The notes beneath the pieces are model-generated. The model did no database searches. It was not told where the DNA came from and worked only from the letters and a program-made list of their open reading frames with translations. Below are positions 2,404 to 31,963 of a stretch of 32,000 nucleotides of DNA, piece by piece (within the stretch, counting starts at the first letter, position 1; each line of letters starts with the position of its first letter). The DNA lies in assembly GCA_019113845.1 (NCBI GenBank), contig DXGQ01000017.1, positions 36,608 through 68,607 on the forward strand, given 5' to 3'. Source of the DNA: Candidatus Anaerobutyricum avicola. GTDB lineage: Bacteria > Bacillota > Clostridia > Lachnospirales > Lachnospiraceae. Position numbers and translations under genes: made by a program.

Positions 2404-4074
2404 ATGAAAACAGATATTCAGATTGCACAGGAAGCGACTATGCTGCCAATCCGTGATGTGGCTGCAAAGTATGGAATTGGTGAAGATGACCTGGAATTAT
2501 ACGGAAAATATAAAGCGAAGTTTTCCGATGAACTGTTAAAAGAGATTGAAGGCCGCCCGGATGGCAAGCTGGTTCTTGTAACCGCCATCAACCCGACTCC
2601 GGCAGGAGAAGGAAAGACCACGACAAGTATCGGTCTGGCGCAGGCGCTCGCAAAGCTGGATAAGAAATGTCTCCTCGCCCTTCGCGAGCCTTCCCTCGGT
2701 CCTTGCTTCGGTATTAAGGGCGGCGCTGCCGGCGGCGGATACGCGCAGGTCGTTCCGATGGAAGATCTGAATCTGCACTTTACCGGAGACTTCCACGCCA
2801 TCACTTCTGCCAACAACCTGCTGGCAGCTATGTTAGATAACCATATCCAGCAGGGAAATGAACTGCGCATCGACACAAGACAGGTTATCTGGAAACGTTG
2901 TCTTGATATGAACGACCGCGCGCTCAGAAACATCGTCATCGGTCTCGGCAAGAAAGCGGATGGCTTTGTGCGCGAGGATCATTTTGTGATCACCGTTGCC
3001 ACGGAGATCATGGCAATCCTCTGTCTGGCAAATGATATGAAAGACTTAAAAGAACGTCTGTCCCGCATCATCGTGGCTTACGACCTGGACGGAAACCCTG
3101 TGACAGCCGGACAGCTTAAAGCAGTGGGCGCTATGGCAGCTCTGTTAAAAGATGCTATCAAACCAAATCTCATTCAGACTCTGGAGAACACCGGCGCCAT
3201 CGTGCACGGCGGACCATTTGCCAACATCGCTCACGGATGTAACAGTGTCCGTGCCACAAAGAGCGCATTAAAACTGGCCGACATCGTCATCACGGAGGCA
3301 GGATTCGGCGCAGACCTGGGCGCAGAGAAGTTCATGGATATCAAGTGCCGGATGGCAGACCTCAAACCGGACGCTGTGGTCCTCGTTGCCACAGTCCGCG
3401 CGTTAAAATATAACGGCGGCGTGCCGAAAGACCAGCTCTCCACCGAGAATCTTGACGCACTGGCAAAAGGAATCTGCAATCTCGAAAAACACATCGAGAA
3501 CCTGCAGAAGTTTGGGGTACCGATCGTGGTAACACTCAACTCCTTTGTGACAGATACGCAGGCAGAGTACGAATATATCCGCAATTTCTGCGAGGAAAGA
3601 GGCTGTGAATTTGCCCTGTCCGAAGTGTGGGCGAAAGGCGGCGAGGGCGGCATCGCTCTGGCAGAAAAAGTGCTGAACACTCTGGAAAATAAGGAGAGTA
3701 ACTTCCACGTACTGTACCCGGACGAGATGCCGTTAAAAGAAAAGATCAACACCATCGCAAAAGAAATCTACGGAGCAGACGGCGTCAATTTTGATCCGGC
3801 GGCATCCAAGATGCTCGACAAGCTGACAGAGCTTGGCTTTGGCAATCTTCCGGTCTGCATGGCAAAAACACAGTACTCCCTCTCCGACGACCAGACCAAA
3901 CTGGGACGTCCGGAAGGATTCAATATCAATGTTCGCGACGTATTTGTCAACGCCGGTGCAGGATTCGTGGTAGCGCTCACCGGAGCCATCATGACCATGC
4001 CGGGACTGCCGAAGAAACCGGCGGCATTCGGCATTGATGTGGACGACGACGGAAAGATCACGGGATTGTTCTGA
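2404..4074 (+). CDS. fhs: Formate--tetrahydrofolate ligase
   Basis: Full-length match by eye to FTHFS, including the [10 protein letters not shown] nucleotide loop and the start [11 protein letters not shown]. The ORF-track start 2398 sits only 2 nt after the GGA of the SD. The ATG at 2404 has proper spacing to AAAGGA (2391-2395). Confidence 0.95.
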
Positions 4075-5596: not shown

Positions 5597-6520
5597 TTAT
5601 GCTCGCTCAGCGAGAAAGGCGTCGATAGCCTCTTTTTCAGGAAGGGAAGGCTGAGCGCCCAGATGCTGTACGGAGATTGCGGCGGCCGCGCTGGCATAGC
5701 GGGCGGAGGAGACGATGTCTCCGGTCTCCGCATATTGTTTTACGAGAACGCCGGTAAAGCAGTCTCCGGCTGCGGTTGGGTCCACGGCGTCAACTTTAAA
5801 GGTCGGGACCATCTCGCAGATGCCCTCGCCGTAGATAAAGGAACCTTTTTCTCCCATTTTCAAAACGACGTATTTACAGCCGGAACGCTCATGAAGAATC
5901 TTGCTGGCGGCGATACAGCTCTCCTCATCTTTCGGGAGGATGCCCACAAGAGCTTCTGTCTCCGTCTCGTTTGGAGAGAGGATGGTGATTCCCTGGAACT
6001 TTTCGATCGGGTAATCCTGCGCAGGACCTGCGTCCAGACAGGTGATCATGCCGCGCTCCTTTGCCAGTGTGAAGGCGCGCAGGTTGCTCTCAAATGGAAT
6101 CTCCAGTTGCATCATGAGAGCGTCATAGGTGTCGTCGGCAAATGCCGCTTCCACGGACTCCGGTGTGGTGTCATTGTTGGCGCCGGTATAGATGGCAAGA
6201 CGGTTCATGCCGTTTTCTTCCAGCATGATGACAGCCATGCCGGTGTTGGCGCCCTCTTTTAACATGAGGTGGGAGACATTGATGCCCGCGCTTTTCAACA
6301 TGCCGAGAAGTGCTTCTCCGTTGGCGTCCTGTCCCAGGGTGCCGCAGACAGATACATTGCCGCCGGCTCTCGCTGCCGCCACGGCAGAATTACTGCCCTT
6401 TCCTCCTCCTGCGTTGGAATACGTGGTGCCCAGAAGACTCTCGCTCGGATGCGGAATCCGCGGCATTTGTAAGATCAGATCCATCATGATGCTTCCAACC
6501 ATTAAAATCTTTGCTGCCAT
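5597..6520 (-). CDS. rbsK: Ribokinase (PfkB family carbohydrate kinase)
   Basis: Motifs NAGGGKGSNSAVAAARAG and DPTAAGDCFTG are present. The start is re-set to Met35 of the ORF-track protein (MAAKILMVGS), whose ATG (6520-6518) is preceded by AAGGAGGGATCAT. Confidence 0.8.
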   Translation of the reverse strand: MAAKILMVGSIMMDLILQMPRIPHPSESLLGTTYSNAGGGKGSNSAVAAARAGGNVSVCGTLGQDANGEALLGMLKSAGINVSHLMLKEGANTGMAVIMLEENGMNRLAIYTGANNDTTPESVEAAFADDTYDALMMQLEIPFESNLRAFTLAKERGMITCLDAGPAQDYPIEKFQGITILSPNETETEALVGILPKDEESCIAASKILHERSGCKYVVLKMGEKGSFIYGEGICEMVPTFKVDAVDPTAAGDCFTGVLVKQYAETGDIVSSARYASAAAAISVQHLGAQPSLPEKEAIDAFLAERA

Positions 6521-9947: not shown

Positions 9948-11537
9948 TTACTCTGCTTTCGGGCCGGCTGCTTTAATGTTCTCCGGCATGTTCGGGTATT
10001 TCTTCTCGAAGTTATCCTGGAACATTTTGGCAAGCTTCTTAGCCTGTGCATCGTAAGCGTCTTTGTCTGCCCATGTATCACGAGGATTCATGATCTCGGA
10101 TGGAACATCCGGGCAACTCTGCGGGATATCCAGATTGAAGATATCGTCATGTTTGTATTCCACGTTGTCAAAGCTTCCGTTTAATGCGGCAGTTACCATG
10201 GCACGGGTATATTTCAGTTTCATACGGCTTCCGACTCCGTAAGGGCCGCCGGTCCATCCTGTGTTTACCAGATATACTTTGGTGTTGTATTTTTCGATTC
10301 TCTCACCAAGCATGTTTGCGTATACGGATGGGTCCATTGGCATGAACGGCTCACCGAATAAGGTGGAGAAGGTCGGCTGTGGTTCGGTGATTCCACGCTC
10401 GGTTCCTGCCAGTTTGGAGGTAAATCCTGTTACAAAGTGATACATAGCGGCGTCGTTATCCAGTCTTGCGATCGGAGGAAGTACGCCGAATGCGTCGGCT
10501 GTCAGGAAGATGACAACCTTCGGGATACCGCCAACGCCCGGTACCTGCGCGTTGGAGATAAAGTCTACCGGGTAACCGACACGAGTGTTCTCTGTGAGAG
10601 AATCATCCGTGAAGTCAAACTCGCGGGTCTCTTCGTCCATCACTACATTTTCCACAAGGCTGCCGAACTTGATCGCGTTGTAGATCTCCGGTTCGTTCTC
10701 CTCGGTAAGGTCGATACATTTTGCGTAGCAGCCGCCCTCGAAGTTGAAGATACCTCTGTCGGACCAGCCGTGCTCGTCGTCGCCGATCAGCTTACGGTTC
10801 GGGTCAGCGGAAAGAGTTGTCTTTCCTGTTCCGGACAGACCGAAGAATACGGCAGTCTCCTGTGTCTCAGGATCCATGTTGGCGGAGCAGTGCATTGGAA
10901 GAACGCCTTCCTTCGGCATCAGGTAGTTCATTACGGAGAAGACAGATTTCTTGATCTCTCCGGAATACTGAGAACCGCAGATGACAACTAATTTTTCCTC
11001 GTAGTTCACCATGATGGCTGCCTCGGAGTTGGTTCCGTCGATCTCCGGTACGCATTTGAATCCCGGAGCGGCGATGATGGTGAAGTCAGGCTCGCCGAAG
11101 TTGGCAAGTTCTTCTGCTGTCGGACGGATCAGCAGATCGCGGATGAACAGATTCTGGCTTGCCAGCTCGTTCACGATACGGAACTTTCTGGTGCAGACCG
11201 GATCTGCGCCTGCCATACCGTCAAATAAGAAGATCTCTCTGTTCTGAAGATATGCGATCACTTTTGCCTTGATGGCGTCGAATTTCTCTTTTTCGATCGG
11301 AACGTTCACGCTGCCCCATGCGATGTCGTCATGGATGGCCGGTGTATCTACGATAAATTTATCTTTTGGGGAACGTCCGGTGTATTTACCTGTGGTTACA
11401 ACTAAAGCACCTTTGTTGGAAAGCTTTCCTTCGCCTCTGGCGAGAGCTGCCTCGGTAAGCTGTGCAGGTGTCAGATTACGGTAGACTGCTTTTGGGTTCG
11501 CAATGCCCAATTTCTCAAGACCAAATGTTTCCATCAT
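9948..11537 (-). CDS. pckA: Phosphoenolpyruvate carboxykinase (ATP)
   Basis: Full-length similarity by eye to ATP-dependent PEPCK, including FFGLSGTGKTTLS (kinase-1a) and GGPYGVG. The start is re-set to MMETFGLEK, whose ATG (11537-11535) lies 5 nt after AGGAGG (RC of 11543-11548). Confidence 0.93.
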   Translation of the reverse strand: MMETFGLEKLGIANPKAVYRNLTPAQLTEAALARGEGKLSNKGALVVTTGKYTGRSPKDKFIVDTPAIHDDIAWGSVNVPIEKEKFDAIKAKVIAYLQNREIFLFDGMAGADPVCTRKFRIVNELASQNLFIRDLLIRPTAEELANFGEPDFTIIAAPGFKCVPEIDGTNSEAAIMVNYEEKLVVICGSQYSGEIKKSVFSVMNYLMPKEGVLPMHCSANMDPETQETAVFFGLSGTGKTTLSADPNRKLIGDDEHGWSDRGIFNFEGGCYAKCIDLTEENEPEIYNAIKFGSLVENVVMDEETREFDFTDDSLTENTRVGYPVDFISNAQVPGVGGIPKVVIFLTADAFGVLPPIARLDNDAAMYHFVTGFTSKLAGTERGITEPQPTFSTLFGEPFMPMDPSVYANMLGERIEKYNTKVYLVNTGWTGGPYGVGSRMKLKYTRAMVTAALNGSFDNVEYKHDDIFNLDIPQSCPDVPSEIMNPRDTWADKDAYDAQAKKLAKMFQDNFEKKYPNMPENIKAAGPKAE

Positions 11538-19136: not shown

Positions 19137-19643
19137 ATGAGAAAATATACGGAAGATGAGAGATTTATGAAAGAAGCCATCCGTCAGGCAAAAAAGGCGG
19201 AAGCCATCGGCGACGTGCCCATCGGCTGTGTCATTGTCTGTGACGGAAAGATCATTGCCAGAGGGTACAATAAGAGAAATAAAAATAAGACGGTGCTTGC
19301 CCACGCGGAACTGCTTGCCATGAGCAAAGCGTGTAAGAAAACAGGAGACTGGCGTCTCGAGGACTGCACTATGTACATCACGCTGGAGCCCTGTCAGATG
19401 TGCGCCGGAGCGATCGTGCAGGCGCGGATACCGCGGGTGGTCATCGGAAGCATGAATCCGAAAGCGGGCTGTGGGGGTTCCATACTGAATCTTCTGCAGA
19501 TGAAAGAATTCAATCATCAGGTGGAAGTTACCCGGGGCGTTCTGGAAGAAGAGTGTTCCGGGATGCTGTCTGATTTTTTCCGTGTCCTCCGTCAAAAAAG
19601 AAAAGAGAGAAAAAAAGAGCTGCAGAGAAAAGAAATGGATTGA
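19137..19643 (+). CDS. tadA: tRNA adenosine(34) deaminase
   Basis: FMKEAIRQAKKAEAIGDVPIGCVIV, the zinc ligands AHAELLA and LEPCQMCAGA are present. The start is uncertain (19122, 19137 or 19167). 19137 gives an N-terminus of the usual length. Confidence 0.88.
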   Translation: MRKYTEDERFMKEAIRQAKKAEAIGDVPIGCVIVCDGKIIARGYNKRNKNKTVLAHAELLAMSKACKKTGDWRLEDCTMYITLEPCQMCAGAIVQARIPRVVIGSMNPKAGCGGSILNLLQMKEFNHQVEVTRGVLEEECSGMLSDFFRVLRQKRKERKKELQRKEMD

Positions 19644-19668
19644 CAGATATTTTAAAATCATTTATACT
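19640..19668 (+). promoter_or_regulatory. Near-consensus sigma-A promoter of the SRP RNA gene
   Basis: TTGACA (19640-19645, overlapping the tadA stop codon), a 17-nt spacer, then TATACT (19663-19668). The mature RNA helix starts about 5 nt downstream. Confidence 0.75.
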
Positions 19669-19670
19669 GG

Positions 19671-19946
19671 TACTTACCGTGCAGCTGGGGAAGTAGCGGC
19701 GTCCTGTACCTGCAATCCGCTATAGCAGGAGTGATGGTTGGCCCCGGACGTATTGTGGATGGAGCTGCCCTTTATAAGTGGTGTTGACAATTGGGTCTCG
19801 CGCAACAGGAACCTCTGAACCGTGTCAGGTCGGGAACGAAGCAGCACTAAGGAGTGCTTTCTGTGTGCCGTGAGGGTGCCTGGTTCGAGCTAACTGTAGA
19901 GGTAACGTCTGTTGACAGTCGTACAAAGCCAACCGCACGGTAAGAG
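19671..19946 (+). ncRNA. ffs: Signal recognition particle RNA, long Bacillus/Clostridium type with Alu domain (scRNA)
   Basis: The domain IV core CCGTGTCAGGTCGGGAACGAAGCAGCACTAAGG lies at about 19820-19852. The Alu-domain 5' part GGGGAAGTAGCGGCGTCCTGTACCTGCAATCCGCTATAGCAGG is nearly identical in pattern to B. subtilis scRNA. The terminal helix pairs CTTACCGTGC (19673-19682) with GCACGGTAAG (19935-19944). The tadA-scr synteny matches B. subtilis. Confidence 0.95.
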
Positions 19947-19974
19947 ACAGATATAAAGATTTAAGATATGGTCG

Positions 19975-20001
19975 AAGACATCCGGTGGGATGTCTTTTTT
20001 T
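19975..20001 (+). terminator. Intrinsic terminator after SRP RNA
   Basis: AAGACATCC (19975-19983) and GGATGTCTT (19988-19996) are separated by the loop GGTG. A T run follows, through 20001. Confidence 0.85.
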
Positions 20002-20017: not shown

Positions 20018-20046
20018 TTGAAATCCCCAGTGGCGTTTGCTATAAT
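20018..20046 (+). promoter_or_regulatory. Sigma-A promoter driving the structured leader and lysK
   Basis: TTGAAA (20018-20023), a 17-nt spacer, then TATAAT (20041-20046). Confidence 0.7.
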
Positions 20047-20073: not shown

Positions 20074-20209
20074 CTTATAGGAAATTCCGTTGGAATTCCT
20101 ATAAGATAAAAATCCCTCCGGGAGGGATGCGCACTCGCGCGAAACAGAATTTTGTCGCTAAAGCGACCGCGCTCGGCGCGAGAGTTCTGTCGGGCAGAAC
20201 TCTTTTTTT
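20074..20209 (+). promoter_or_regulatory. Multi-hairpin leader element ending in an intrinsic terminator (copy X of a repeat family); probable attenuator of lysK
   Basis: H1 is a 14-bp bulged stem at 20074-20105. H2 is ATCCCTC-CGG-GAGGGAT at 20112-20128. The helix CTCGCGC (20134-20140) / GCGCGAG (20176-20182) encloses GTCGC-TAAA-GCGAC (20154-20167). The terminator is GAGTTCTG (20182-20189) / CAGAACTC (20195-20202) plus T7. The element is colinear with those at 31267-31391 and 31867-31963. Confidence 0.6.
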
Positions 20210-22479: not shown

Positions 22480-23121
22480 ATGAAAGCATTAATTTTTGAC
22501 CTGGGCATGGTGCTGATTCATTTTCGGTGGAGAGATTTCCTCACGGATATGGGATATGAAGGGGAGAAAAAAGAGGGACTTGCGAGAGCAATGTTTCAGA
22601 ATCCTTTGTGGACGGAGTTCGACCGGGGCGTGATGGGGGATGAGAACGTCATCGCGCAGATGCAGCTGGAATCGCCGCAGTACGCGGAAGATATCGAGCG
22701 CATCTGGCAGAAGGAGAATTTCGTTAATATCTGCCATCCTTTTGATTATTCGGAGGAGCTGATCCGCACGCTCCATGAGATGGGATATAAGATTTATGTG
22801 CTGTCCAACTATGGAAAGACATTGTTGGGACTTAACCGTACGAAATATACATTTTTAAACTATGTGGATGGAGGCGTCTTCTCCTGTGATGTAAAACTGT
22901 TAAAGCAGGATGATGCGATTTATCAGGAACTCATTGAGAAGTACGGTATTGACCCGGAAAATGCAGTCTTCTTTGATGATCTGGAAGCAAACTGCGAGGG
23001 CGCCCGCCGGGCGGGTATCACTGCCGTGCAGGTGACCGACGGACTTCGCTCTATCCTGGATGGTCTGAGAGAAGAGTGCGGGGTCGAACTGCCGGCGATG
23101 GAGAGATATCTGAAAGATTAG
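22480..23121 (+). CDS. HAD-superfamily hydrolase (subfamily IA-like)
   Basis: Motif I is MKALIFDLGMVLI (DxG). Motif II is LSNYG. Motif III/IV is FFDDLEAN. AGAGGAG lies 9 nt upstream of the ATG. Confidence 0.8.
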   Translation: MKALIFDLGMVLIHFRWRDFLTDMGYEGEKKEGLARAMFQNPLWTEFDRGVMGDENVIAQMQLESPQYAEDIERIWQKENFVNICHPFDYSEELIRTLHEMGYKIYVLSNYGKTLLGLNRTKYTFLNYVDGGVFSCDVKLLKQDDAIYQELIEKYGIDPENAVFFDDLEANCEGARRAGITAVQVTDGLRSILDGLREECGVELPAMERYLKD

Positions 23122-23141
23122 TAAACAACGGAGAATCAACA

Positions 23142-26100
23142 ATGAAAAAATTAGTATTAGCAGAGAAGCCCTCGGTGGCAAGAGATATCGCCCGGGTGCT
23201 TGGCTGCAAAAAGCAGACGAAAAATTATATCGAAGGTGATAAATATGTAGTCACCTGGGGGCTGGGGCATCTGGTGACGCTGGCGGACCCGGAGGGTTAT
23301 GATAAGAAGCTTAAGACCTGGAGGATGGAAGATCTGCCTATGATGCCGGAGCACCTGAAACTGGTGGTGATTCCGCAGACGAGGGGGCAGTTTCAGGCGG
23401 TGAAGAATCAGATGGAGCGCAAAGACATTTCCGAGGTGATCATCGCCACGGACGCCGGACGGGAAGGCGAGCTGGTGGCGCGGTGGATCATCGTTAAGGC
23501 AGGCTGTAAGAAGCCCCTTCGCCGTCTGTGGATTTCCTCGGTGACAGATAAGGCCATCCGGGAGGGATTTGCGCATCTTAAGGATGCGAAGGAGTACGAG
23601 AATCTGTACCGGGCGGCGGTGGCAAGAGCGGAAGCGGACTGGCTGGTGGGGATCAACGCCACTCGCGCGCTCACCTGCAAGTATAACGCGCAGCTTTCCT
23701 GCGGCCGGGTGCAGACGCCGACGCTCGCCATGATCGCGGCGCGGGAGGAAGAGATCCGGCATTTTGTTCCAAAGCCATATTACGGGCTGCAGGCAAACTG
23801 GAAAGGCGTCACATTTACATGGAAGGAGCGGGGCAGCGGAAGTTCTTCTGTCTTTTCCAAAGAGTCAAGGGACCGGGCGTATGACCGGGCAAAAAATGCG
23901 GCAGGCAGGGTGGTTTCTGTCAAAAAGATGAAGAAGACTTCGCATCTGGACGGATTATATGATCTGACGACCTTGCAGAGAGACGCCAATCAGCGGTTTG
24001 GTTTCTCTGCCAAGCAGACGCTGAACCTGATGCAGAGTCTTTACGAGCATCATAAAGTTCTGACTTATCCGAGAACCGATTCCCGGTACTTAACCACAGA
24101 TGTGGCGGAGACGCTTCGTGAGAGGGTGTCGGCGGTGGCGGTGGGACCGTACCGCGTCTATGCCAACAGTATTTTAAAGGGGAAGATCAAGACAGGGCCT
24201 TCCTTTGTCAACAATAAGAAGGTTTCCGATCATCACGCAATCATTCCGACGGAGCAGCCGGTCATTCTGGCACAGCTTTCCGTAGATGAGAGAAAGATTT
24301 TTGATCTGGTGGCGCGGCGTTTTCTGGCGATGCTGTATCCGGCTTATGAATATGAGCAGACGGCGGTGACGGTGGACTGCGGAGGAGAAACCTTTGAGGT
24401 GAAAGGAAATGTACCTCTGCGTCTGGGGTTTAAGGAAGTGCTCACCGATCAGGATAGCGAGGCGGAACGGGTCCTTCCGGCGTGGACGGAGGGGGAAAGT
24501 CTCGGAACTCCGGTCTTGAAAGCGACGGAAGGCAAGACGAAGCCACCGGCGAGATTTACGGAAGGAACACTTCTGCAGGCCATGGAAAATCCGGTGAAAT
24601 ATATGCAGAGCAAAGATAAAACTGCGGCAAAAACGCTTCAGGAAACCGGAGGGCTTGGAACGGTGGCTACCCGGGCGGATATCATTGATAAGCTGTTCCG
24701 TTCTTTCCTCATTGAGAAGAAAGAAAATGAGATTCAACTGACGGGCAAGGCGAAGCAGCTTTTGCAGCTGGTGCCGGAAGATTTAAAGAAGCCGGAGCTT
24801 ACCGCCCAGTGGGAGATGAAGCTTAACGGTATAGCCAACGGGAAGCTCAGACAGAGTACGTTCATGAAAGAAATCCGCCATTATGCCACGGATCTGACAG
24901 AAGAGATCAAAGGCGGGGAAGGGACTTTCCGCCATGATAATCTGACCAACAAGCATTGTCCGCAGTGTGGAAAACGACTGCTGGCTGTGAATGGCAAACA
25001 GGGAAAACTGCTCGTGTGTCAGGACAGAGAATGCGGTTACCGGGAGCGGGTTTCCCGTCTTACCAACGCCCGCTGTCCGGTCTGTCATAAACGGATGGAA
25101 CTCATCGGCCAGAAAGAGAATCAGAAGTTTGTCTGCGTCTGCGGACATAAGGAGTCGATGAAAGCCTTTGAGGAGCGGCGCAAGCGGGAAGGCGCCGGTG
25201 TATCAAAAAGGGATGTACAAAACTATATGAAAAAGATGAAAAAAGAAGAAAAACAGCCGGTCAATAATGCGCTGGCGGACGCCCTTGCCAATATCAAGCT
25301 GTGTCTTCTGCTCGTATTTGGCGTGCTGTCGCTGATGACGATAAGCGTGGATGCGTCGGCGGCCGGGGAAACCGGCGTGACGAGTGAGGCAGAAGAAATC
25401 TCTGCGTCTGCACAGAAAAGAAACGCCGCCGGCAGGCAGATTGCCAGTATGTTTCCGACAGATATGGATGTGCGGCCGGTGACGGCGCATTCCATCAAGT
25501 ATGATACCGTGAATGTATACAGTGACGCCGTGCTCACCCAGCAGGCGGGACAGGTGGAGGGAGGCAGACTGCGCCTTACCGCTTACCGGGTGGAAGGCAA
25601 GGCAATCTATGGCGATTATGTGAGCGGGGATATGCAGGGAAGCGGCTGGTTTTCTGTTGACACCTTTGTGGAAAATCCGGACTATGAGCCGGTGTACGCG
25701 CTGGCGAGGGACCGTATGTACGCCTACACGGACAGCAGTTTTGATGAAGTGCGGGGTAAGATAAAAAAATACACCGGAGTCATCGTGGTGAGCCGGGAAG
25801 GTGGAAACCGACAGGTGATTTTTGAGACAAATGACGGCTATGAGATCGGCTGGATGACCAGCGACGCTTTTTCCAACTGCCTGCTCTATGACGGAAGGGA
25901 GAAGCAGGTTCTTTCTGACGGAACCTATCTGTTCCGGTGCGGGTACACGGAGGATGCGGACGGCGGCGCAGAGATCGCGAACCAGACAGGATTGACGGAT
26001 TATGACAGTTACACGATGGAACTGATCTATGTTTCTGATAATGATTATTTTGTAAAGAATCAGGAGACCGGTCAGTATCTTTCCGCCGGAAAGACCGGGA

Positions 26101-26927
26101 TAACCGGACAAACCGAAACAGTAAAACAAACAGGGACAGAGGAGCAAGCCGGACAAGCGGGAGAGATAGAGGAAGAATCTGATTCTGACGTGGAAGAAAT
26201 ATGGGTTCCGGTCTGGACGGAAGAACCGGACGAAAAAACGGGACTGTTTCATTTTAACAGAAACGGTGGCTCCTTTGCTGTGCAGAACACACTCTGTCGT
26301 CTGTTTCTGGGACAGAACGAAGAGAGAAAACTTGTTTTTCTGGAAAACAGGCAGAGTGACGCCAGCCACTGGAGGGTCAGCGCCGCGGAGGAACTGTTTG
26401 ACCGGGAACAGCCGATGATATTTACCCAGTACGACCCGGAATGGTGCGGGACGCCGTACGGAGGCGGCGGAAGTATGGGGACGGCAGGCTGTGGCGTCCT
26501 GGCCGCTGTCAATGCGGTGTATTCCCTTTCCGGGCACTATATGGATGTGATGGAGCTGGCAGATTACGCTGTGGAGAAGAACTACCGGATCGTGGGCAGC
26601 GGTACCGATGACGGGATCTTCAAAGGGGCATGTCAGGAGTTTGGCAGGAAATATAATTTTGCCTGGGATGGAAAGAGCGGCAGCGTCGATGTTCTGAAAG
26701 AAAAGCTGTTGGCGGGAGATGTAGCCATCGCTCATGTGCCGGGACATTATGTGGTCATCGGCGCCTACAGCAAAAAGAAAAATAAATATCTCGTGCTGGA
26801 TTCCAACTATCTGCCAAAGAGAGCGACAAGCGCTTTTGGCGACTGGGTCTCTGTGGAACGGCTTCTGGAAGGAAGTCTGATGGGACAGAATTTTTATTTT
26901 TATAAGCTGCGGGATACGGTTTCTTAA
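23142..26927 (+). CDS. topB: DNA topoisomerase III continuing in frame into a TM/signal-like helix, SH3b-like repeats and a C39-like papain-fold peptidase domain (single 1261-aa ORF)
   Basis: TopB part: MKKLVLAEKPSVARDIA, Toprim IIATDAGREGELV, active site LTYPRTDSRYL, zinc ribbons CPQCG..CQDRECG and CPVCH..CVCGH, and the basic tail ...KKMKKEEKQPVNNALADALANIKL. No stop follows. Codons from 25299 give LCLLLVFGVLSLMTISVDASAAG. A further ~520 aa end in QYDPEWCG...GTAGCGVLAAVNA...PGHYVVIGAY...LDSNY. The start ATG at 23142 lies 7 nt after ACGGAGA. Confidence 0.75.
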   Translation: MKKLVLAEKPSVARDIARVLGCKKQTKNYIEGDKYVVTWGLGHLVTLADPEGYDKKLKTWRMEDLPMMPEHLKLVVIPQTRGQFQAVKNQMERKDISEVIIATDAGREGELVARWIIVKAGCKKPLRRLWISSVTDKAIREGFAHLKDAKEYENLYRAAVARAEADWLVGINATRALTCKYNAQLSCGRVQTPTLAMIAAREEEIRHFVPKPYYGLQANWKGVTFTWKERGSGSSSVFSKESRDRAYDRAKNAAGRVVSVKKMKKTSHLDGLYDLTTLQRDANQRFGFSAKQTLNLMQSLYEHHKVLTYPRTDSRYLTTDVAETLRERVSAVAVGPYRVYANSILKGKIKTGPSFVNNKKVSDHHAIIPTEQPVILAQLSVDERKIFDLVARRFLAMLYPAYEYEQTAVTVDCGGETFEVKGNVPLRLGFKEVLTDQDSEAERVLPAWTEGESLGTPVLKATEGKTKPPARFTEGTLLQAMENPVKYMQSKDKTAAKTLQETGGLGTVATRADIIDKLFRSFLIEKKENEIQLTGKAKQLLQLVPEDLKKPELTAQWEMKLNGIANGKLRQSTFMKEIRHYATDLTEEIKGGEGTFRHDNLTNKHCPQCGKRLLAVNGKQGKLLVCQDRECGYRERVSRLTNARCPVCHKRMELIGQKENQKFVCVCGHKESMKAFEERRKREGAGVSKRDVQNYMKKMKKEEKQPVNNALADALANIKLCLLLVFGVLSLMTISVDASAAGETGVTSEAEEISASAQKRNAAGRQIASMFPTDMDVRPVTAHSIKYDTVNVYSDAVLTQQAGQVEGGRLRLTAYRVEGKAIYGDYVSGDMQGSGWFSVDTFVENPDYEPVYALARDRMYAYTDSSFDEVRGKIKKYTGVIVVSREGGNRQVIFETNDGYEIGWMTSDAFSNCLLYDGREKQVLSDGTYLFRCGYTEDADGGAEIANQTGLTDYDSYTMELIYVSDNDYFVKNQETGQYLSAGKTGITGQTETVKQTGTEEQAGQAGEIEEESDSDVEEIWVPVWTEEPDEKTGLFHFNRNGGSFAVQNTLCRLFLGQNEERKLVFLENRQSDASHWRVSAAEELFDREQPMIFTQYDPEWCGTPYGGGGSMGTAGCGVLAAVNAVYSLSGHYMDVMELADYAVEKNYRIVGSGTDDGIFKGACQEFGRKYNFAWDGKSGSVDVLKEKLLAGDVAIAHVPGHYVVIGAYSKKKNKYLVLDSNYLPKRATSAFGDWVSVERLLEGSLMGQNFYFYKLRDTVS

Positions 26928-30157: not shown

Positions 30158-30591
<434 letters not shown>

Positions 30592-30765
30592 GACAGAAAA
30601 GATTATTTTACGGAACTGGATTCCGCGATCGGAGACGGAGACCACGGTATGAACCTGTCCATCGGTTTCCGCGAGGTGAATAAAAATATCGAAGAGTGGA
30701 AGGAACTGAGCGTCAAAGATCTCTATAAGAATGTCGGAACAGCTCTCCTTGACAAGGTGGGCGGT
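30592..30765 (+). pseudogene. DhaL-subunit N-terminal fragment (about 58 codons), fused in frame to the DhaK fragment
   Basis: FTELDSAIGDGDHGMNLSIGFREV...[15 protein letters not shown] matches the DhaL ADP-binding motif (LD.AIGDGDHG) through to the VGGASG region. Homology then stops. Confidence 0.7.
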
Positions 30766-30992
30766 TCTTTGTTCCGGCATTTACCGGGCTGGGCGCTCCT
30801 CACTGGAACACCGGCGCGAGAGGAATGATGATCGGCATCACGGCGGCGACCACAAGAGAACAGATGGTGAGAGCCGCGCTGGAATCCATGGCATATCAGA
30901 CGAGAGATCTTCTGGAGGAGATGGAGAGAAACTCCGGCATCAAACTGAGAAGATCAGAAAATGTAAAGATGCGGGGTTCAGAGGCGTCATGA
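30765..30992 (+). pseudogene. Glycerol kinase C-terminal-half fragment (about 61 codons plus unrelated tail)
   Basis: In the frame starting at 30765: [61 protein letters not shown]. This matches the GlpK region VPAFSGLGAPYWD..ARG...G.TRGT....RA.LES.AYQ.RD. Homology ends at 30947, and the frame reaches a stop at 30990. Confidence 0.75.
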
Positions 30993-31091
30993 CCAGCAGC
31001 CGGGAACTCTGGTCCATGAAAGTGTAGAGCGGCTGATAATTGTCTGTAAAAACAGGAAAATAAAAAAAATTAAAAAAATCAAAAAAAGTAC

Positions 31092-31132: not shown

Positions 31133-31219
31133 GCGGATATGGCGGAATTGGCAGACGCGCTAGATTCAGGTTCTAGTGAGCACTTATCGCTCATGCAAGT
31201 TCAAGTCTTGTTATCCGCA
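31133..31219 (+). tRNA. tRNA-Leu (anticodon CAG), class II with long variable arm, no encoded CCA
   Basis: Acceptor stem is GCGGATA/TATCCGC plus discriminator A. The D region is GGCGGAATTGGCAGACGC. The anticodon stem-loop is CTAGA-TTCAGGT-TCTAG. The variable arm is GAGCACTTATCGCTC. The T arm is GCAAG-TTCAAGT-CTTGT. Confidence 0.93.
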
Positions 31220-31229
31220 CTGCAAAGGG

Positions 31230-31266
31230 CATCCGAGAGTATGATTGATATTCTCGGATGTTTTTT
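31230..31266 (+). terminator. Intrinsic terminator after tRNA-Leu
   Basis: CATCCGAGA (31230-31238) pairs with TCTCGGATG (31252-31260). T6 follows. Confidence 0.8.
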
Positions 31267-31391
31267 ATTGCATAGGAAATTTACATTTCTATGCAATAAA
31301 AACGCTCCGCGAGGATCGCACTGCGGCGAATTGGAAGATGTCGCTCCCGCGACCCGCCGCAGGCGGAGAATCCTGCAAAGCAGGATTCTTT
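31267..31391 (+). repeat. Copy A of the structured repeat family (H1 hairpin, core, terminator-like hairpin)
   Basis: H1 is TTATTGCATAG (31265-31275) / CTATGCAATAA (31289-31299). The core lies at 31304-31373. The helix CTGCGGCG (31321-31328) / CGCCGCAG (31355-31362) encloses GTCGC-TCCC-GCGAC (31340-31353). The terminal hairpin GAATCCTGC-AAA-GCAGGATTC (31368-31388) is followed by TTTCTT. Confidence 0.8.
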
Positions 31392-31395
31392 CTTG

Positions 31396-31440
31396 ATTGC
31401 ATAGGAAATTTACATTTCTATACAGCAACAGAACGCTGCC
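31396..31440 (+). repeat. Second, truncated unit of the same element (direct repeat of the H1 segment, 129 nt after the first)
   Basis: ATTGCATAGGAAATTTACATTTCTAT at 31396-31421 is identical to 31267-31292 (26/26). The following ACAGCAACAGAACGCTGCC still resembles GCAATAAAAACGCTCCGC of unit 1, and similarity then ends. Confidence 0.75.
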
Positions 31441-31493: not shown

Positions 31494-31835
31494 ATGTTCA
31501 TAGTTGATGAAAAAGAAAAAGAATACCGCTATGGCGATAATGGTCCAAAGTATCTCATGCAGGGACCGAGGTCAAGCTTTGGCATCTGTCAGCTCAAACC
31601 GGGCCAGGTGTATGCGCCTCATGAGCACCGGATCATGGAAGAGAACTTCTTTGTGATAAAGGGAAGGATCATCGTGGAGATCGATGGCGTGGCGACGACT
31701 GTGGAGGAAGGACAGATGTTTCATGTGGAGCCGGGTGAGTTTCACAAGGTATCCAATCCGACGGAGGACTATGTCCGCTACATTATCACCTGCGCACCGT
31801 TTGCGGAGAATGACAAATATACAGAAAAGCAGTGA
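31494..31835 (+). CDS. Cupin-domain protein, 113 aa
   Basis: The cupin motifs read GQVYAPHEHRIMEENFFVIKG ... GEFHKVSNP. The start is re-set to the ATG at 31494, 7 nt after AGGAGGA. The ORF-track TTG at 31470 has no SD. Confidence 0.8.
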   Translation: MFIVDEKEKEYRYGDNGPKYLMQGPRSSFGICQLKPGQVYAPHEHRIMEENFFVIKGRIIVEIDGVATTVEEGQMFHVEPGEFHKVSNPTEDYVRYIITCAPFAENDKYTEKQ

Positions 31836-31836
31836 G

Positions 31837-31863
31837 AACGGACTCTTCGGAGTCCGTTTTTTT
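31837..31863 (+). terminator. Intrinsic terminator after the cupin gene
   Basis: AACGGACTC-TTCG-GAGTCCGTT is followed by a T run of five more residues (31859-31863), giving an uninterrupted T7 at 31857-31863. Confidence 0.85.
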
Positions 31864-31866
31864 AAT

Positions 31867-31963
31867 GCTCTGCAAGGGTCGCACAGCGGCGGACCGGAAG
31901 ATGCTGCTTCCGCGACCCGCCGCAGGCGGAGAATCCCGGCCTTACATTTTCGGGTGATTTTTT
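31867..31963 (+). repeat. Copy B of the structured repeat family
   Basis: By hand alignment, 31867-31936 matches 31304-31373 at 60 of 70 positions, and the last 27 nt are identical (CCGCGACCCGCCGCAGGCGGAGAATCC). A different, imperfect hairpin follows (CCCG 31935-31938 / CGGG 31951-31954), then T6. Confidence 0.8.

Follow-up and report, generated by a model that had tools for sequence, protein, structure and literature searches.

Several families of small interspersed repeats have been described in bacteria, including MITEs, REP/BIME sequences, the BOX and RUP elements of pneumococci and bcr1 of the Bacillus cereus group. The hallmark of MITEs is the combination of terminal inverted repeats with a target-site duplication. 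REP/BIME sequences consist of a GC-rich palindrome of 20–40 nt with a 5´ GTAG, and have a cognate RAYT gene. In addition, group IIC introns are retroelements that insert after intrinsic terminators (PMC4748821, PMC4424553).

The stretch of Candidatus Anaerobutyricum avicola DNA analysed here (32,000 nt, hereafter the window) harbours three copies of a structured element in 32 kb, designated A, B and X. Across its family, the unit measures about 105–135 bp and comprises, in this order, a long AT-rich palindrome (H1) joined to the T-tract of an intrinsic terminator already in place, a short hairpin with CUCCG (H2), a 49-nt core and a hairpin with a T-rich tail (T2), sometimes followed by H1 again. 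With a probability of roughly 60%, A, X and B are copies of a non-autonomous, strand-specific, MITE/REP-like interspersed element that settles after terminators. This reading is favoured because of the empty orthologous sites, the several copies per genome, the arrays of mixed sub-families and the strand bias. A first-pass annotation of the window had offered three candidates, of which the hairpin-ended non-autonomous mobile element fits best, while an attenuator or leader family and an sRNA gene are not supported.

Comparison with described systems

The element resembles MITEs, REP/BIME, BOX, RUP and bcr1 in its size of about 100–150 bp and its non-coding, multi-copy and intergenic nature. 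It is likewise hairpin-rich and modular, enriched at the 3´ ends of genes, variable between relatives and subject to decay of its copies. As is generic for interspersed repeats, multiple dispersed copies occur per genome and presence or absence differs at orthologous sites. However, terminal inverted repeats with a target-site duplication, as in MITEs, could not be demonstrated, the H1 palindrome recurring after T2 in only 14 of 108 copies, and, unlike REP sequences, its parts contain no GTAG and the unit is 105–135 nt long. It also differs from these interspersed repeats in being polar, with a start in a terminator T-tract and an end in its own terminator-like hairpin, and in having a core that is near-identical across genera.

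The niche and polarity are the same as those of group IIC introns, directly downstream of a Rho-independent terminator, but the element has only about 130 nt and neither ribozyme domains nor an intron-encoded protein. The Rfam group II intron models gave no match on A, B or X; the same models detect an intron in locus L225 of a sister species. Like the IS200/IS605-derived PATEs and REPs, which move as single-stranded DNA, the element is hairpin-dependent, has no obvious terminal inverted repeats or target-site duplication, and shows a strong orientation bias with respect to the replication strand (by a GC-skew proxy). In contrast, the left- and right-end hairpins of IS608-type elements are alike, whereas H1 and T2 are unrelated in sequence, and the element differs from PATEs in that no Y1 transposase or TnpB gene is found among its downstream neighbours and no 4–5-nt target beyond the T-tract.

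Finally, integron attC sites and gene cassettes share with the element a structure conserved above sequence, a folded single strand that is plausibly the active form, and units flanking a small gene (here, the cupin gene between A and B). Unlike integrons, the element has no R´/R´´ core sites (GTTRRRY), integrase or attI, and its copies are scattered behind terminators instead of forming one cassette array.

No named family had been recognised at first reading, and Rfam 15 yields none. At the gathering score, only SRP RNA and tRNA were matched in the whole window, and, with E up to 10, regions A, B and X gave only chance matches of 11.7–19 bits, far below the gathering scores. In the literature searched (Lachnospiraceae MITE/REP elements, sRNAs and structured RNAs) the element is not described, and literal strings of its sequence had no match there.

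Copy A and its flanks

The upstream neighbour of copy A is a tRNA-Leu(CAG) gene (31133–31220, plus strand), identified by ARAGORN and Rfam model RF00005. Its intrinsic terminator, T1, was read from the sequence at 31230–31266 (plus strand) as CATCCGAGAG...CTCGGATG followed by TTTTTT, and copy A starts at the T-tract of T1. The T1 orthologue is retained in loci L223, L224 and L225, with or without the element.

H1 of copy A (31262–31302, plus strand) is an AT-rich palindrome with a 17-bp stem according to the fold and the family alignment. Positions 31262–31278 pair with 31286–31302, flanking T-run and A-run included; the left side is the T-tract of T1, the right side is the run ATAAAAA, and the inner arms are the family-wide TAGGAAA/TTTC(C)TA. 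A shorter hairpin had been noted at this place, and the fold agrees with it, the T-run and A-run lengthening its stem. H2 (31306–31315, plus strand) has the form TCC-GCGA-GGA within the conserved CGCTCCGCGAGGAT, as indicated by the fold and by covarying column pairs. The 49-nt core follows at 31317–31365 (plus strand), defined by a regex match, the fold and pair counts, and scores 108 bits with the covariance model R1. Its parts are P0 (CGC/GCG, with a bulged A behind it), P1 (CTGCGGCG/CGCCGCAG), an 11-nt loop on the 5´ side that is rich in purines and includes GGAAGAT, and P2 (GTCGC-TCCC-GCGAC). The minimum-free-energy fold bears out the enclosure of P2 by P1, which had been proposed from the letters.

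T2 (31366–31395, plus strand) is folded as a terminator-like hairpin of 11 pairs, GAGAATCCTGC-AAA-GCAGGATTCTT, with the T-rich tail TTCTTTCTTG; the 9-bp hairpin GAATCCTGC-AAA-GCAGGATTC described earlier is contained in it. A strict consensus terminator scan did not call T2 of copy A because its U-tract is interrupted. The fold of copy A as a whole lies well apart from that of shuffled sequences (z = −6.5).

A second H1 follows the unit at 31396–31430 (plus strand), as deduced from a 26-nt repeat and from flank alignment with L224. Its 5´ arm and loop (31396–31421) are identical to those of the first H1, and its 3´ arm is degenerate (TAT-aca-GCAAc). Two exact matches to the 25-nt string TTGCATAGGAAATTTACATTTCTAT are present in the window (31268–31292 and 31397–31421), and none is expected from 100 shuffles; with the preceding A, it makes up the 26-nt exact repeat at 129-nt spacing (31267–31292/31396–31421) noted at first reading. 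Copy A is bracketed by two copies of H1, hence this repeat. The letters after 31421, previously taken for about 18 nt more of a second unit, are better read as the degenerate 3´ arm of the second H1 and then native flank, because ACAGAACGC... aligns with the flank ACAGAAATC... at the orthologous locus L224. A plain local duplication of the full unit is not supported as the origin of the repeat: the second H1 stands behind the terminator of the unit, as it does in 14 of 108 copies.

Copies B and X

Between copies A and B, and outside the element, lies a cupin-domain gene (31494–31835, plus strand; ORF with Pfam Cupin_2). Its intrinsic terminator, ACGGACTCTTCGGAGTCCGT followed by a T-run, was read from the sequence at 31838–31863 (plus strand), and copy B begins directly after it. 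Copy B (31867–31962, plus strand) has an H2-like hairpin, a core at 31880–31928 and an altered T2 (GAGAATCCCGG...CGGGTGATTTTTT), but no H1. Its core has 25 bases identical to that of copy A, with one mismatch in P1 and one in P2, and the model R1 gives it 61.8 bits. The loop of its last hairpin contains the stop codon of a convergent gene of 107 amino acids.

Copy X (20074–20209, plus strand), a member of sub-family 2, is located in the 5´ leader of lysK, downstream of the lysK promoter TTGAAA-17-TATAAT (20018–20046, plus strand), and sits within the lysK transcript. Its parts are H1 (20074–20105), H2 (20112–20128), the core (20130–20178) and T2 (20180–20204, then U7). It folds with z = −6.0 against shuffles, scores 65.1 bits with R1 and is identical in six strain contexts of the window species. 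A and X had been assigned to one family on account of the same order of parts, which stands, and copy B adds a third member; the cores of A, B and X are each exactly 49 nt long, from CGCAC to GGCG. The enclosing helix CTCGCGC/GCGCGAG given for copy X needs revision, since the predicted register is GCGC...GCGC together with GCGCG/CGCGC. In the window, A may represent a complete unit between two H1 copies, B a decaying unit devoid of H1, and X a unit that would have become fixed within the lysK leader.

Architecture and covariation of the family

Throughout the family, the core runs from CGCAC through P1, a purine-rich one-sided loop (GGAA..AU), P2 (GYYGC-N4-GCRRC) and the return strand of P1 to GGCG. 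The helices differ in sequence yet stay paired: in 117 copies, 89.2% of the cells are paired, compared with 38–51% for slid partners, and 237 double-change cells were counted versus 72.5 ± 12.4 in shuffles. The helices are retained via compensatory change between sub-families; other variants of P1 are AGCCGCA/TGCGGCT and GGCCCGCG/CGCGGGCC, and the column pairs of H2 (helix 1 of the pair counts) covary too. As P1 differs by one column between sub-families, RNAalifold retrieved no more than P2 and a part of T2 from the mixed alignment; the structure was thus supplied by hand for the covariation counts and the model.

The outer 12 nt of both H1 arms are 84% complementary family-wide, against 60% with shuffled partners, and this complementarity is copy-specific. 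T2 closes most copies and bears no relation to H1; a T2 hairpin of at least 7 pairs with a T-rich tail is retained in 101 of 117 copies (86%); the unit's own H1 is repeated after T2 in 14 of 108. Some copies lack H1 or H2 and begin right at the terminator T-run (L099, L185). Three sub-families are common to different genera. The core is almost identical across genera in sequence as well as in structure, with the loop bases GGAA..AU kept. Two of these features weigh against a mobile origin, in addition to points on neighbouring genes, junctions and gene leaders given below: this near-identity could equally mean a conserved cellular function, and T2 with its T-rich tail is kept on one strand (86%), for which a purely DNA-level parasite has no obvious need.

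Many copies contain broken helices, and G–T and A–C mismatches are equally common in the helices (88 and 89, respectively, one pair set aside). Together, these two observations are the pattern expected from neutral decay of single copies. Wobble asymmetry was tried as a marker of an RNA strand, and none was found in these counts.

Each unit could, in principle, be a gene for a trans-acting sRNA, a transcription unit of ~85 nt (H2, core and T2) with an anti-Shine–Dalgarno-like CUCC seed in H2. The terminator-like 3´ end, the conserved CUCCG motif and the tandem arrays, as in some sRNA families, agree with this idea. It is nevertheless very unlikely that the element is such a gene family, as the first-pass annotation had entertained: no conserved promoter is present, the loop of H1 measures anything between 4 and about 45 nt, the 3´ arm of H1 varies freely at its −10-like positions, and a promoter scan finds none there. 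Moreover, copy X lies inside the lysK transcript, copies of the L099 and L185 type dispense with H1 or H2 and start at the terminator T-run, and presence or absence differs among sister species. A promoter inside H1, including a sigma-H-like AGGAAAT...GAAT, was discarded, its spacer being the variable hairpin loop and its −10-like bases not being conserved. A small peptide starting at the conserved ATG of the loop was discarded as well, the P2 loop and the length of T2 varying regardless of reading frame.

Distribution across genomes

A search for copies beyond the window had been suggested along with the covariation check. In species-representative genomes, a degenerate pattern gave at least 120 matches, at least about 115 of them true copies. 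Among the matches listed, five are chance matches, all in high-GC taxa, and the remainder belong to Lachnospiraceae and allies; the carriers listed include Blautia, Roseburia, Dorea, Anaerostipes, C. symbiosum, Lacrimispora and others, and several of the genomes listed have 3–5 matches. A looser pattern had been applied to viral contigs, where only 3 of 87 matches were real, all of one locus; since the loose pattern was mostly false, the tighter one was adopted for the species-representative scan.

The element was found behind terminators in more than 100 species, and also on plasmids and phage-like contigs. It is present without an annotated feature in a Roseburia megaplasmid and in a plasmid of 224 kb. 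A further 34 faecal contigs named "Bacteriophage sp." contain it, and their records carry no annotation at all. In arrays, adjacent units come from different sub-families (L131, L105, L128 and L166), which suggests that units reached one site several times and were not duplicated locally. Copies of the same genome share derived traits, such as the loss of H2 in CATKYY01 (L106, L127, L129 and L134), and the Diplocloster copies (L101, L136 and L142) have a common P2/T2 type.

Genomic sites and presence or absence in relatives

In the family alignment, the unit begins at the T-run behind a variable GC-rich hairpin. A same-strand upstream terminator-like hairpin with a T-run was found by strict criteria in 59 of 112 copies, and the terminator stem ends 51–63 nt before CGCAC in most of these. 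The units stand directly behind terminators and on the same strand as those terminators.

A comparison with empty sites, also advised earlier, showed that all three window copies are missing at the same sites in sister species. Five congeners (89–81% LysK identity) lack copy X in their lysK leaders and keep the ffs–lysK synteny and/or the promoter, and the model R1 gave no match on these five leaders; the lysK promoter itself is kept in congeners without copy X. At the tRNA-Leu site, L223 and L225 carry no unit, and L224 has a different, decayed one. The filled sites in the window and L224 may go back to one old insertion, later lost elsewhere, and not to two insertions. The site orthologous to that of copy B is empty in L223 and L224, and L225 has a group II intron there, after the cupin terminator.

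The junctions are T-rich, with TTTTTTA on the left and TTTCTTG or TTTTTTA on the right. Neither the alignment of copies nor the comparison of filled with empty sites demonstrates a copy-specific target-site duplication at these T-rich flanks, and no defined tetra- or pentanucleotide target appears beyond the terminator T-tract. That the A-run arose by inverted copying of the T-tract of the host seems less likely; filled and empty sites better fit a complete H1 that would merge with this T-tract on arrival.

Strand bias and gene context

Taking GC skew over 8 kb as a mere proxy for replication direction, with the G-rich strand as the presumed leading strand, 100 of 106 copies (94.3%) lie on the positive-skew strand of their locus, compared with 481 of 637 ORFs (75.5%) of the same loci (Fisher p = 1.8e-6). 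A convergent gene follows 34 of 110 copies (31%). The 66 downstream genes carry 105 Pfam families, with at most three genes per family, and include no transposase or other mobilising gene, Y1 transposase or TnpB; no autonomous version was seen among these neighbours. Neither sub-family 2 nor sub-family 3 is associated with particular genes, and a sub-family of X type specific to lysK was rejected, X-type units being found elsewhere too.

The position of X and A upstream of genes, their terminator-like hairpin ends and a compact core whose conserved internal loop resembles a small aptamer would be in keeping with control of lysK and the cupin gene by a riboswitch or gene-specific attenuator. 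This explanation, akin to the dedicated attenuator or leader family first suggested, has next to no credibility left and is regarded as refuted by the distribution. No functional theme exists among the downstream genes; copy B, like 31% of copies, has no co-directional gene downstream; the element is absent from congeneric lysK leaders and from the cupin upstream regions of L223 and L225; and the core precedes the promoter of the next gene in L049 and L226. Furthermore, reading of the alignment reveals no terminator/antiterminator alternative. The one antiterminator stem considered, GCAGG/CCUGC, is lost where T2 has CUCGC, UUCGC or GUCGC, and T2 starts right after P0 without overlap.

Complete units with an intact T2 are nonetheless located between promoters or T-box leaders and essential genes, namely in the lysK leader in 6 of 6 strain contexts of the window species and ahead of metG in L121 and L129. 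T2 may consequently be weak or controlled, which also counts against the mobile reading. In L121 and L129, truncated units without T2 reach up to the ribosome-binding site of the next gene.

Such contexts raise the question of a cis-acting RNA module used by the cell, an accessory or insulator of the terminator that tunes read-through into the next gene. After read-through of the first terminator, H1 (the U-tract with the A-run), H2 and the core would fold and transcription would end at T2, perhaps controlled by a global factor binding the conserved core. The placement of units directly behind a terminator and on its strand, the retention of T2 in 86% of copies, the conservation of the core sequence across genera, with its loop bases, and the presence of units in the leaders of lysK and metG, genes that need expression, all speak for this module, as do the T2-less units next to ribosome-binding sites. 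On the other hand, the unit can be dispensed with at each locus, as sister species lack it there, and 31% of copies face a convergent gene. No alternative pairing of core and T2 exists, its only candidate (GCAGG/CCUGC) being lost when T2 covaries; wobble pairs are no commoner than A–C mismatches, many copies are decayed, and a strand bias above that of genes is not predicted by insulation alone. On balance, a cellular module of this kind appears unlikely.

Proposed mechanism and biological meaning

If the element is a small mobile DNA, as is preferred here, new copies would arise by strand-specific insertion beside a terminator hairpin and its T-tract. The likely route would be single-stranded DNA at the lagging-strand template, where the hairpins of both target and element could fold. 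The conserved core and H1 may be the structures recognised by the mobilising enzyme, and the built-in terminator-like hairpin would render insertions behind genes nearly harmless.

A bolder proposal, put forward tentatively and with the odds against it, is that the family is either a new terminator-seeking mobile DNA, in which the core and H1 serve as folded single-strand substrates, or as the RNA cofactor or guide, of a recombinase or nuclease recognising terminators on the lagging-strand template, or a widespread functional RNA motif that sets read-through of a second terminator. If the RNA-motif alternative were true, Lachnospiraceae would use a mobile plug-in conditional terminator, even in the leaders of essential aminoacyl-tRNA synthetase genes. 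The intact units ahead of these genes offer a handle on whether T2 is weak, bypassed or regulated.

Lachnospiraceae rank with the most abundant bacteria of the human gut. A structured element of 130 nt that Rfam does not list, and that carries no label in either of the two annotated plasmid records inspected, constitutes an annotation gap. Searches for sRNAs, riboswitches and terminators will be confused by it, and assemblies probably break at it. Should the element be mobile, as is favoured here, it would be a second class, beside group IIC introns, that homes to intrinsic terminators, and its strand bias, which exceeds the bias of genes, would point to a single-strand-specific enzyme.

Structure of the Element Copies in the Window

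The layout described by the first-pass annotation for copy A, the unit behind tRNA-Leu(CAG) (31133-31220), was borne out by reading the sequence and by its fold. The tRNA terminator hairpin with its T-run (31230-31266) lies directly ahead of a long AT-rich palindrome, H1 (stem 31262-31278/31286-31302 in the predicted fold), a short hairpin, H2 (31306-31315), a GC-rich stem-loop core (31317-31365) and T2 (31366-31395), an 11-pair hairpin, GAGAATCCTGC-AAA-GCAGGATTCTT, with a T-rich tail. Counting the T-run and the following ATAAAAA, H1 folds as a 17-bp stem. The core contains an 11-nt one-sided loop and GTCGC-TCCC-GCGAC, both within CTGCGGCG/CGCCGCAG, and the stretch folds far better than shuffled sequence (z = -6.5).

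Copy X (20074-20209), in the lysK leader, shows the identical order of parts, as had been noted, and its last hairpin has 11 pairs and a U7 tail; the copy is located downstream of a strong lysK promoter (TTGAAA-17-TATAAT, 20018-20046). The third, copy B (core 31880-31928), lies between convergent genes, behind the terminator of the cupin gene. All three copies have a core of exactly 49 nt, counted from CGCAC to GGCG. The stop codon (31942-31944) of a 107-aa convergent minus-strand gene (10449-10772 in the strain locus L001) falls inside the loop of the last hairpin of copy B, so that the last few codons of this gene come from element sequence. Its orthologue has 106 aa in the related loci L223 and L224, both without copy B.

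The 26-nt repeat in copy A (31267-31292 and 31396-31421) is exact, as first reported, and not expected by chance. It had been read as running on into about 18 more nt of a second unit; alignment with L224, where the native flank restarts at ACAGAACGC (about 31429), shows that no full second unit begins here and identifies the repeat as a second H1, 3' of T2, whose 3' arm carries a 3-nt insertion. The element's own H1 is repeated after T2 in 14 of 108 copies, with a further unit behind it in some and none in others.

Upstream of tRNA-Leu, a Dak1/Dak2-FGGY-like gene (30397-31027, plus strand; L001 8585-9499) forms one 304-aa ORF in L001, L002 and L007 and two ORFs, of 143 aa and at least 55 aa, in the window and other strains, which suggests a frameshift polymorphism or a pseudogene. 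A topoisomerase gene with Toprim and Topoisom_bac domains (23076-26927, plus strand; L001 1270-5115) encodes 1261-1283 aa in most strains and is called as two genes in L001 and L007; its C-terminal part weakly resembles a C39-type peptidase.

Members and Consensus of the Family

Rfam 15 matched only the SRP RNA and tRNA in the window and, at E-values up to 10, nothing above 19 bits in the regions of A, B and X, in agreement with the earlier remark that the element was not recognised as a named family. The pattern CGCAC-N12-GAA-N3-5-GYYGC-N4-GCRRCC-N5-8-GGCG, searched in one genome per species, matched at least 120 stretches. Among the matches listed, 5 of 120 were chance, in actinobacteria or proteobacteria, and all the remaining ones came from Lachnospiraceae and allies, including Blautia, Roseburia, Dorea, Anaerostipes, Anaerobutyricum, Lacrimispora, Hungatella, Laedolimicola, Diplocloster, other genera and C. 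symbiosum. Several genomes contributed 3-5 of the matches listed, which also included tandem pairs 119-129 nt apart.

The consensus unit starts with a variable GC hairpin and TTTTTTA, which are the property of the upstream gene, followed by H1 (TT-TCA-TAGGAAA-loop-TTCCTA-TGA-AATAAAAA), H2 (CGCTCCGCGAGGAT), the core (CGCACTGCGGCGGAAAGGAAnnATGTCGCTnAnGCGACCCGCCGCAGGCG) and T2 (GAGAATCCTGC-aaa-GCAGGATTCTTTCTT). At least three core sub-families are common to several genera, and more divergent ones were recovered by R1, a covariance model of the family.

Further copies, none of them annotated, were located by BLAST on a Roseburia megaplasmid and on a 224-kb plasmid that is labelled C. perfringens; 34 faecal "Bacteriophage sp." contigs, deposited with no annotation at all, also carry the element. 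The genes of the 224-kb plasmid look Lachnospiraceae-like, and just downstream of its copy a THF riboswitch that has a promoter of its own (L226 2731-2832) precedes the gene for a folate ECF transporter S component. A looser pattern on viral contigs gave mostly chance matches in GC-rich coding DNA and one real relative (L049, L058, L093), with a compensatory change in the enclosing helix P1 (CUGCGUCG/CGACGCAG) and a promoter downstream of the core. Upstream of this relative (L049 about 10900-11150, minus orientation; L058; L093), the 5' arm of H1 has given way to GC-rich sequence, and another long and perfectly paired hairpin, GGAACCAAACAGGCAGATTCGTGC...GCACGAAAATCTGCCTGTTTGGTCC, is present; these may represent a second repeat family. 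Each of the three contigs ends within 140-350 nt of the element, suggesting that assemblies break at repeats.

Genomic Position and Strand

Among 121 cores surveyed, the nearest upstream ORF lies on the element's strand in 89 of 111 cases; in the others, a same-strand hairpin with a T-run (of tRNAs, leaders, etc.) still usually precedes H1. Under strict criteria, an upstream terminator-like hairpin with a T-run was found for 59 of 112 copies, its stem ending 51-63 nt ahead of CGCAC in most. Some copies without H1 and H2 (L099, L185) begin right at a terminator T-run.

Of 110 downstream ORFs, 76 point the same way as the element and 34 converge on it, often from a distance of just 10-60 nt. In L049 and L226 the promoter of the next gene comes after the unit. 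Pfam matches for the 66 co-directional genes downstream covered 105 families, each hit at most three times and with no transposase among them, and no tie of sub-families to particular genes was found. These positions and mixed neighbours rule out a riboswitch or dedicated leader, and with it the attenuator initially considered, in that sense.

The positive-GC-skew strand, with skew taken over the rest of each locus as a rough proxy for replication strand, carries 100 of 106 copies (94.3%) versus 481 of 637 ORFs of the same loci (75.5%; Fisher p = 1.8e-6). The bias still held in 17 of 20 cases with the upstream ORF on the other strand. Since the leading strand is the G-rich strand in Firmicutes, the element strand as drawn would, insofar as this rough proxy holds, be the lagging-strand template and transiently single-stranded.

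Presence and Absence among Relatives

The comparison of orthologous sites agrees with the mobile-element candidate put forward earlier, as the sites are empty or differently occupied in sister species; A, B and X are thus all lineage-specific. Neither inspection nor R1 finds a unit in the lysK leaders of orthologues at 89, 86, 86, 84 and 81% identity, all of which keep the ffs-lysK synteny and/or the promoter. The tRNA-Leu-to-cupin spacer is empty in L223, where the terminator runs directly into TTTTTTGTTTTTATACAATAAT... and a ribosome-binding site, and in L225; L224 has one unit there, which differs in its H1, lacks a second H1 and has a broken P0 (the CGC/GCG helix) and a broken T2. Where the window has copy B, L223 and L224 are both empty. 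In L225 (1985-2268, orthologous to about 31870), a group II intron (Rfam RF02001, RF01998; D1-D4 models), unrelated to copy B, occupies the same niche directly behind the cupin terminator.

In 10 strain loci of the window species, A and B agree with the window sequence at every position or all except a few, apart from L010, where the length near B changes by 1 nt; X is identical in 6 strain contexts. Units of different sub-families are often joined in arrays (L131, L105, L128, L166), which speaks for several arrivals at a single site, and copies of one genome have derived traits in common.

The lysK promoter comes a short way behind the SRP RNA gene ffs (large bacterial type; 19677-19940, plus strand), which has its own promoter (19640-19668) and terminator (19974-19997); the ffs-lysK order is kept in the congeners L218, L219 and L222. 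In L218, without X, TTTTTCATTTCACAGGAATTCCTTCCTCTATGG after the ffs terminator (about 2330-2370) resembles, by its sequence, a degenerate solo H1.

Covariation, Decay and the Nature of the Element

The claim that the helices differ yet stay paired was upheld in 117 distinct copies, aligned with five helices supplied by hand. Standard pairs fill 89.2% of cells, versus 38-51% with partners slid by 1-3 columns, and both sides changed in 237 cells versus 72.5 +/- 12.4 in shuffles, none of 500 reaching 237. The core hairpin P2 uses four pair combinations; T2 occurs as CCTGC, CTCGC, TTCGC, GTCGC or CCCGC, each with its complement; P1 is replaced outright in divergent units (AGCCGCA/TGCGGCT and GGCCCGCG/CGCGGGCC); and H1 covaries from TAGGA/TCCTA to CAGGA/TCCTG. 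The outer 12 nt of H1 show copy-specific complementarity of 84% versus 60% with shuffled partners (77% versus 38% at non-T positions). The folds are thus important for whatever process propagates the family.

Some features fit a mobile element poorly and keep alive a rival, a cis-acting terminator module controlled by a factor. The core hardly differs from genus to genus, T2 and its T-rich tail are kept in 86% of copies, and complete units lie between the conserved promoter and lysK in all 6 strain contexts examined and, in L121 (C. symbiosum ATCC 14940, 3321-3927, minus strand) and L129 (an uncultured MAG, 5768-6251, plus strand), between a T-box leader and metG. In both metG leaders the order is T-box, complete unit (its terminator-like hairpin intact), truncated unit and metG, so that an essential gene is expressed through the predicted terminator; T2 is either a poor terminator or else bypassed or regulated. 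Mismatches within helices are equally G-T (88) and A-C (89), with one pair set aside, and helices are broken in many individual copies. This is the pattern expected from decay of individual copies, not that of purifying selection on each as a functional RNA, and we consider the terminator module unlikely.

The element resembles MITE, REP, BOX and bcr1 repeats in size and behaviour, but clearly shows the defining features of none of them, nor those of group IIC introns, with which it shares the niche behind intrinsic terminators (PMC4748821, PMC4424553). We favour, with a probability of roughly 0.6, the reading that they are non-autonomous interspersed elements of a new family, which settle in one orientation at intrinsic-terminator T-tracts and bring their own terminator-like hairpin. 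Their kinship, structure, placement, variation between species, mixed arrays and strand bias are shown by the analysis; we infer both their mobility and its mechanism, in which the hairpins would probably serve, as single-stranded DNA, whatever copies the element.
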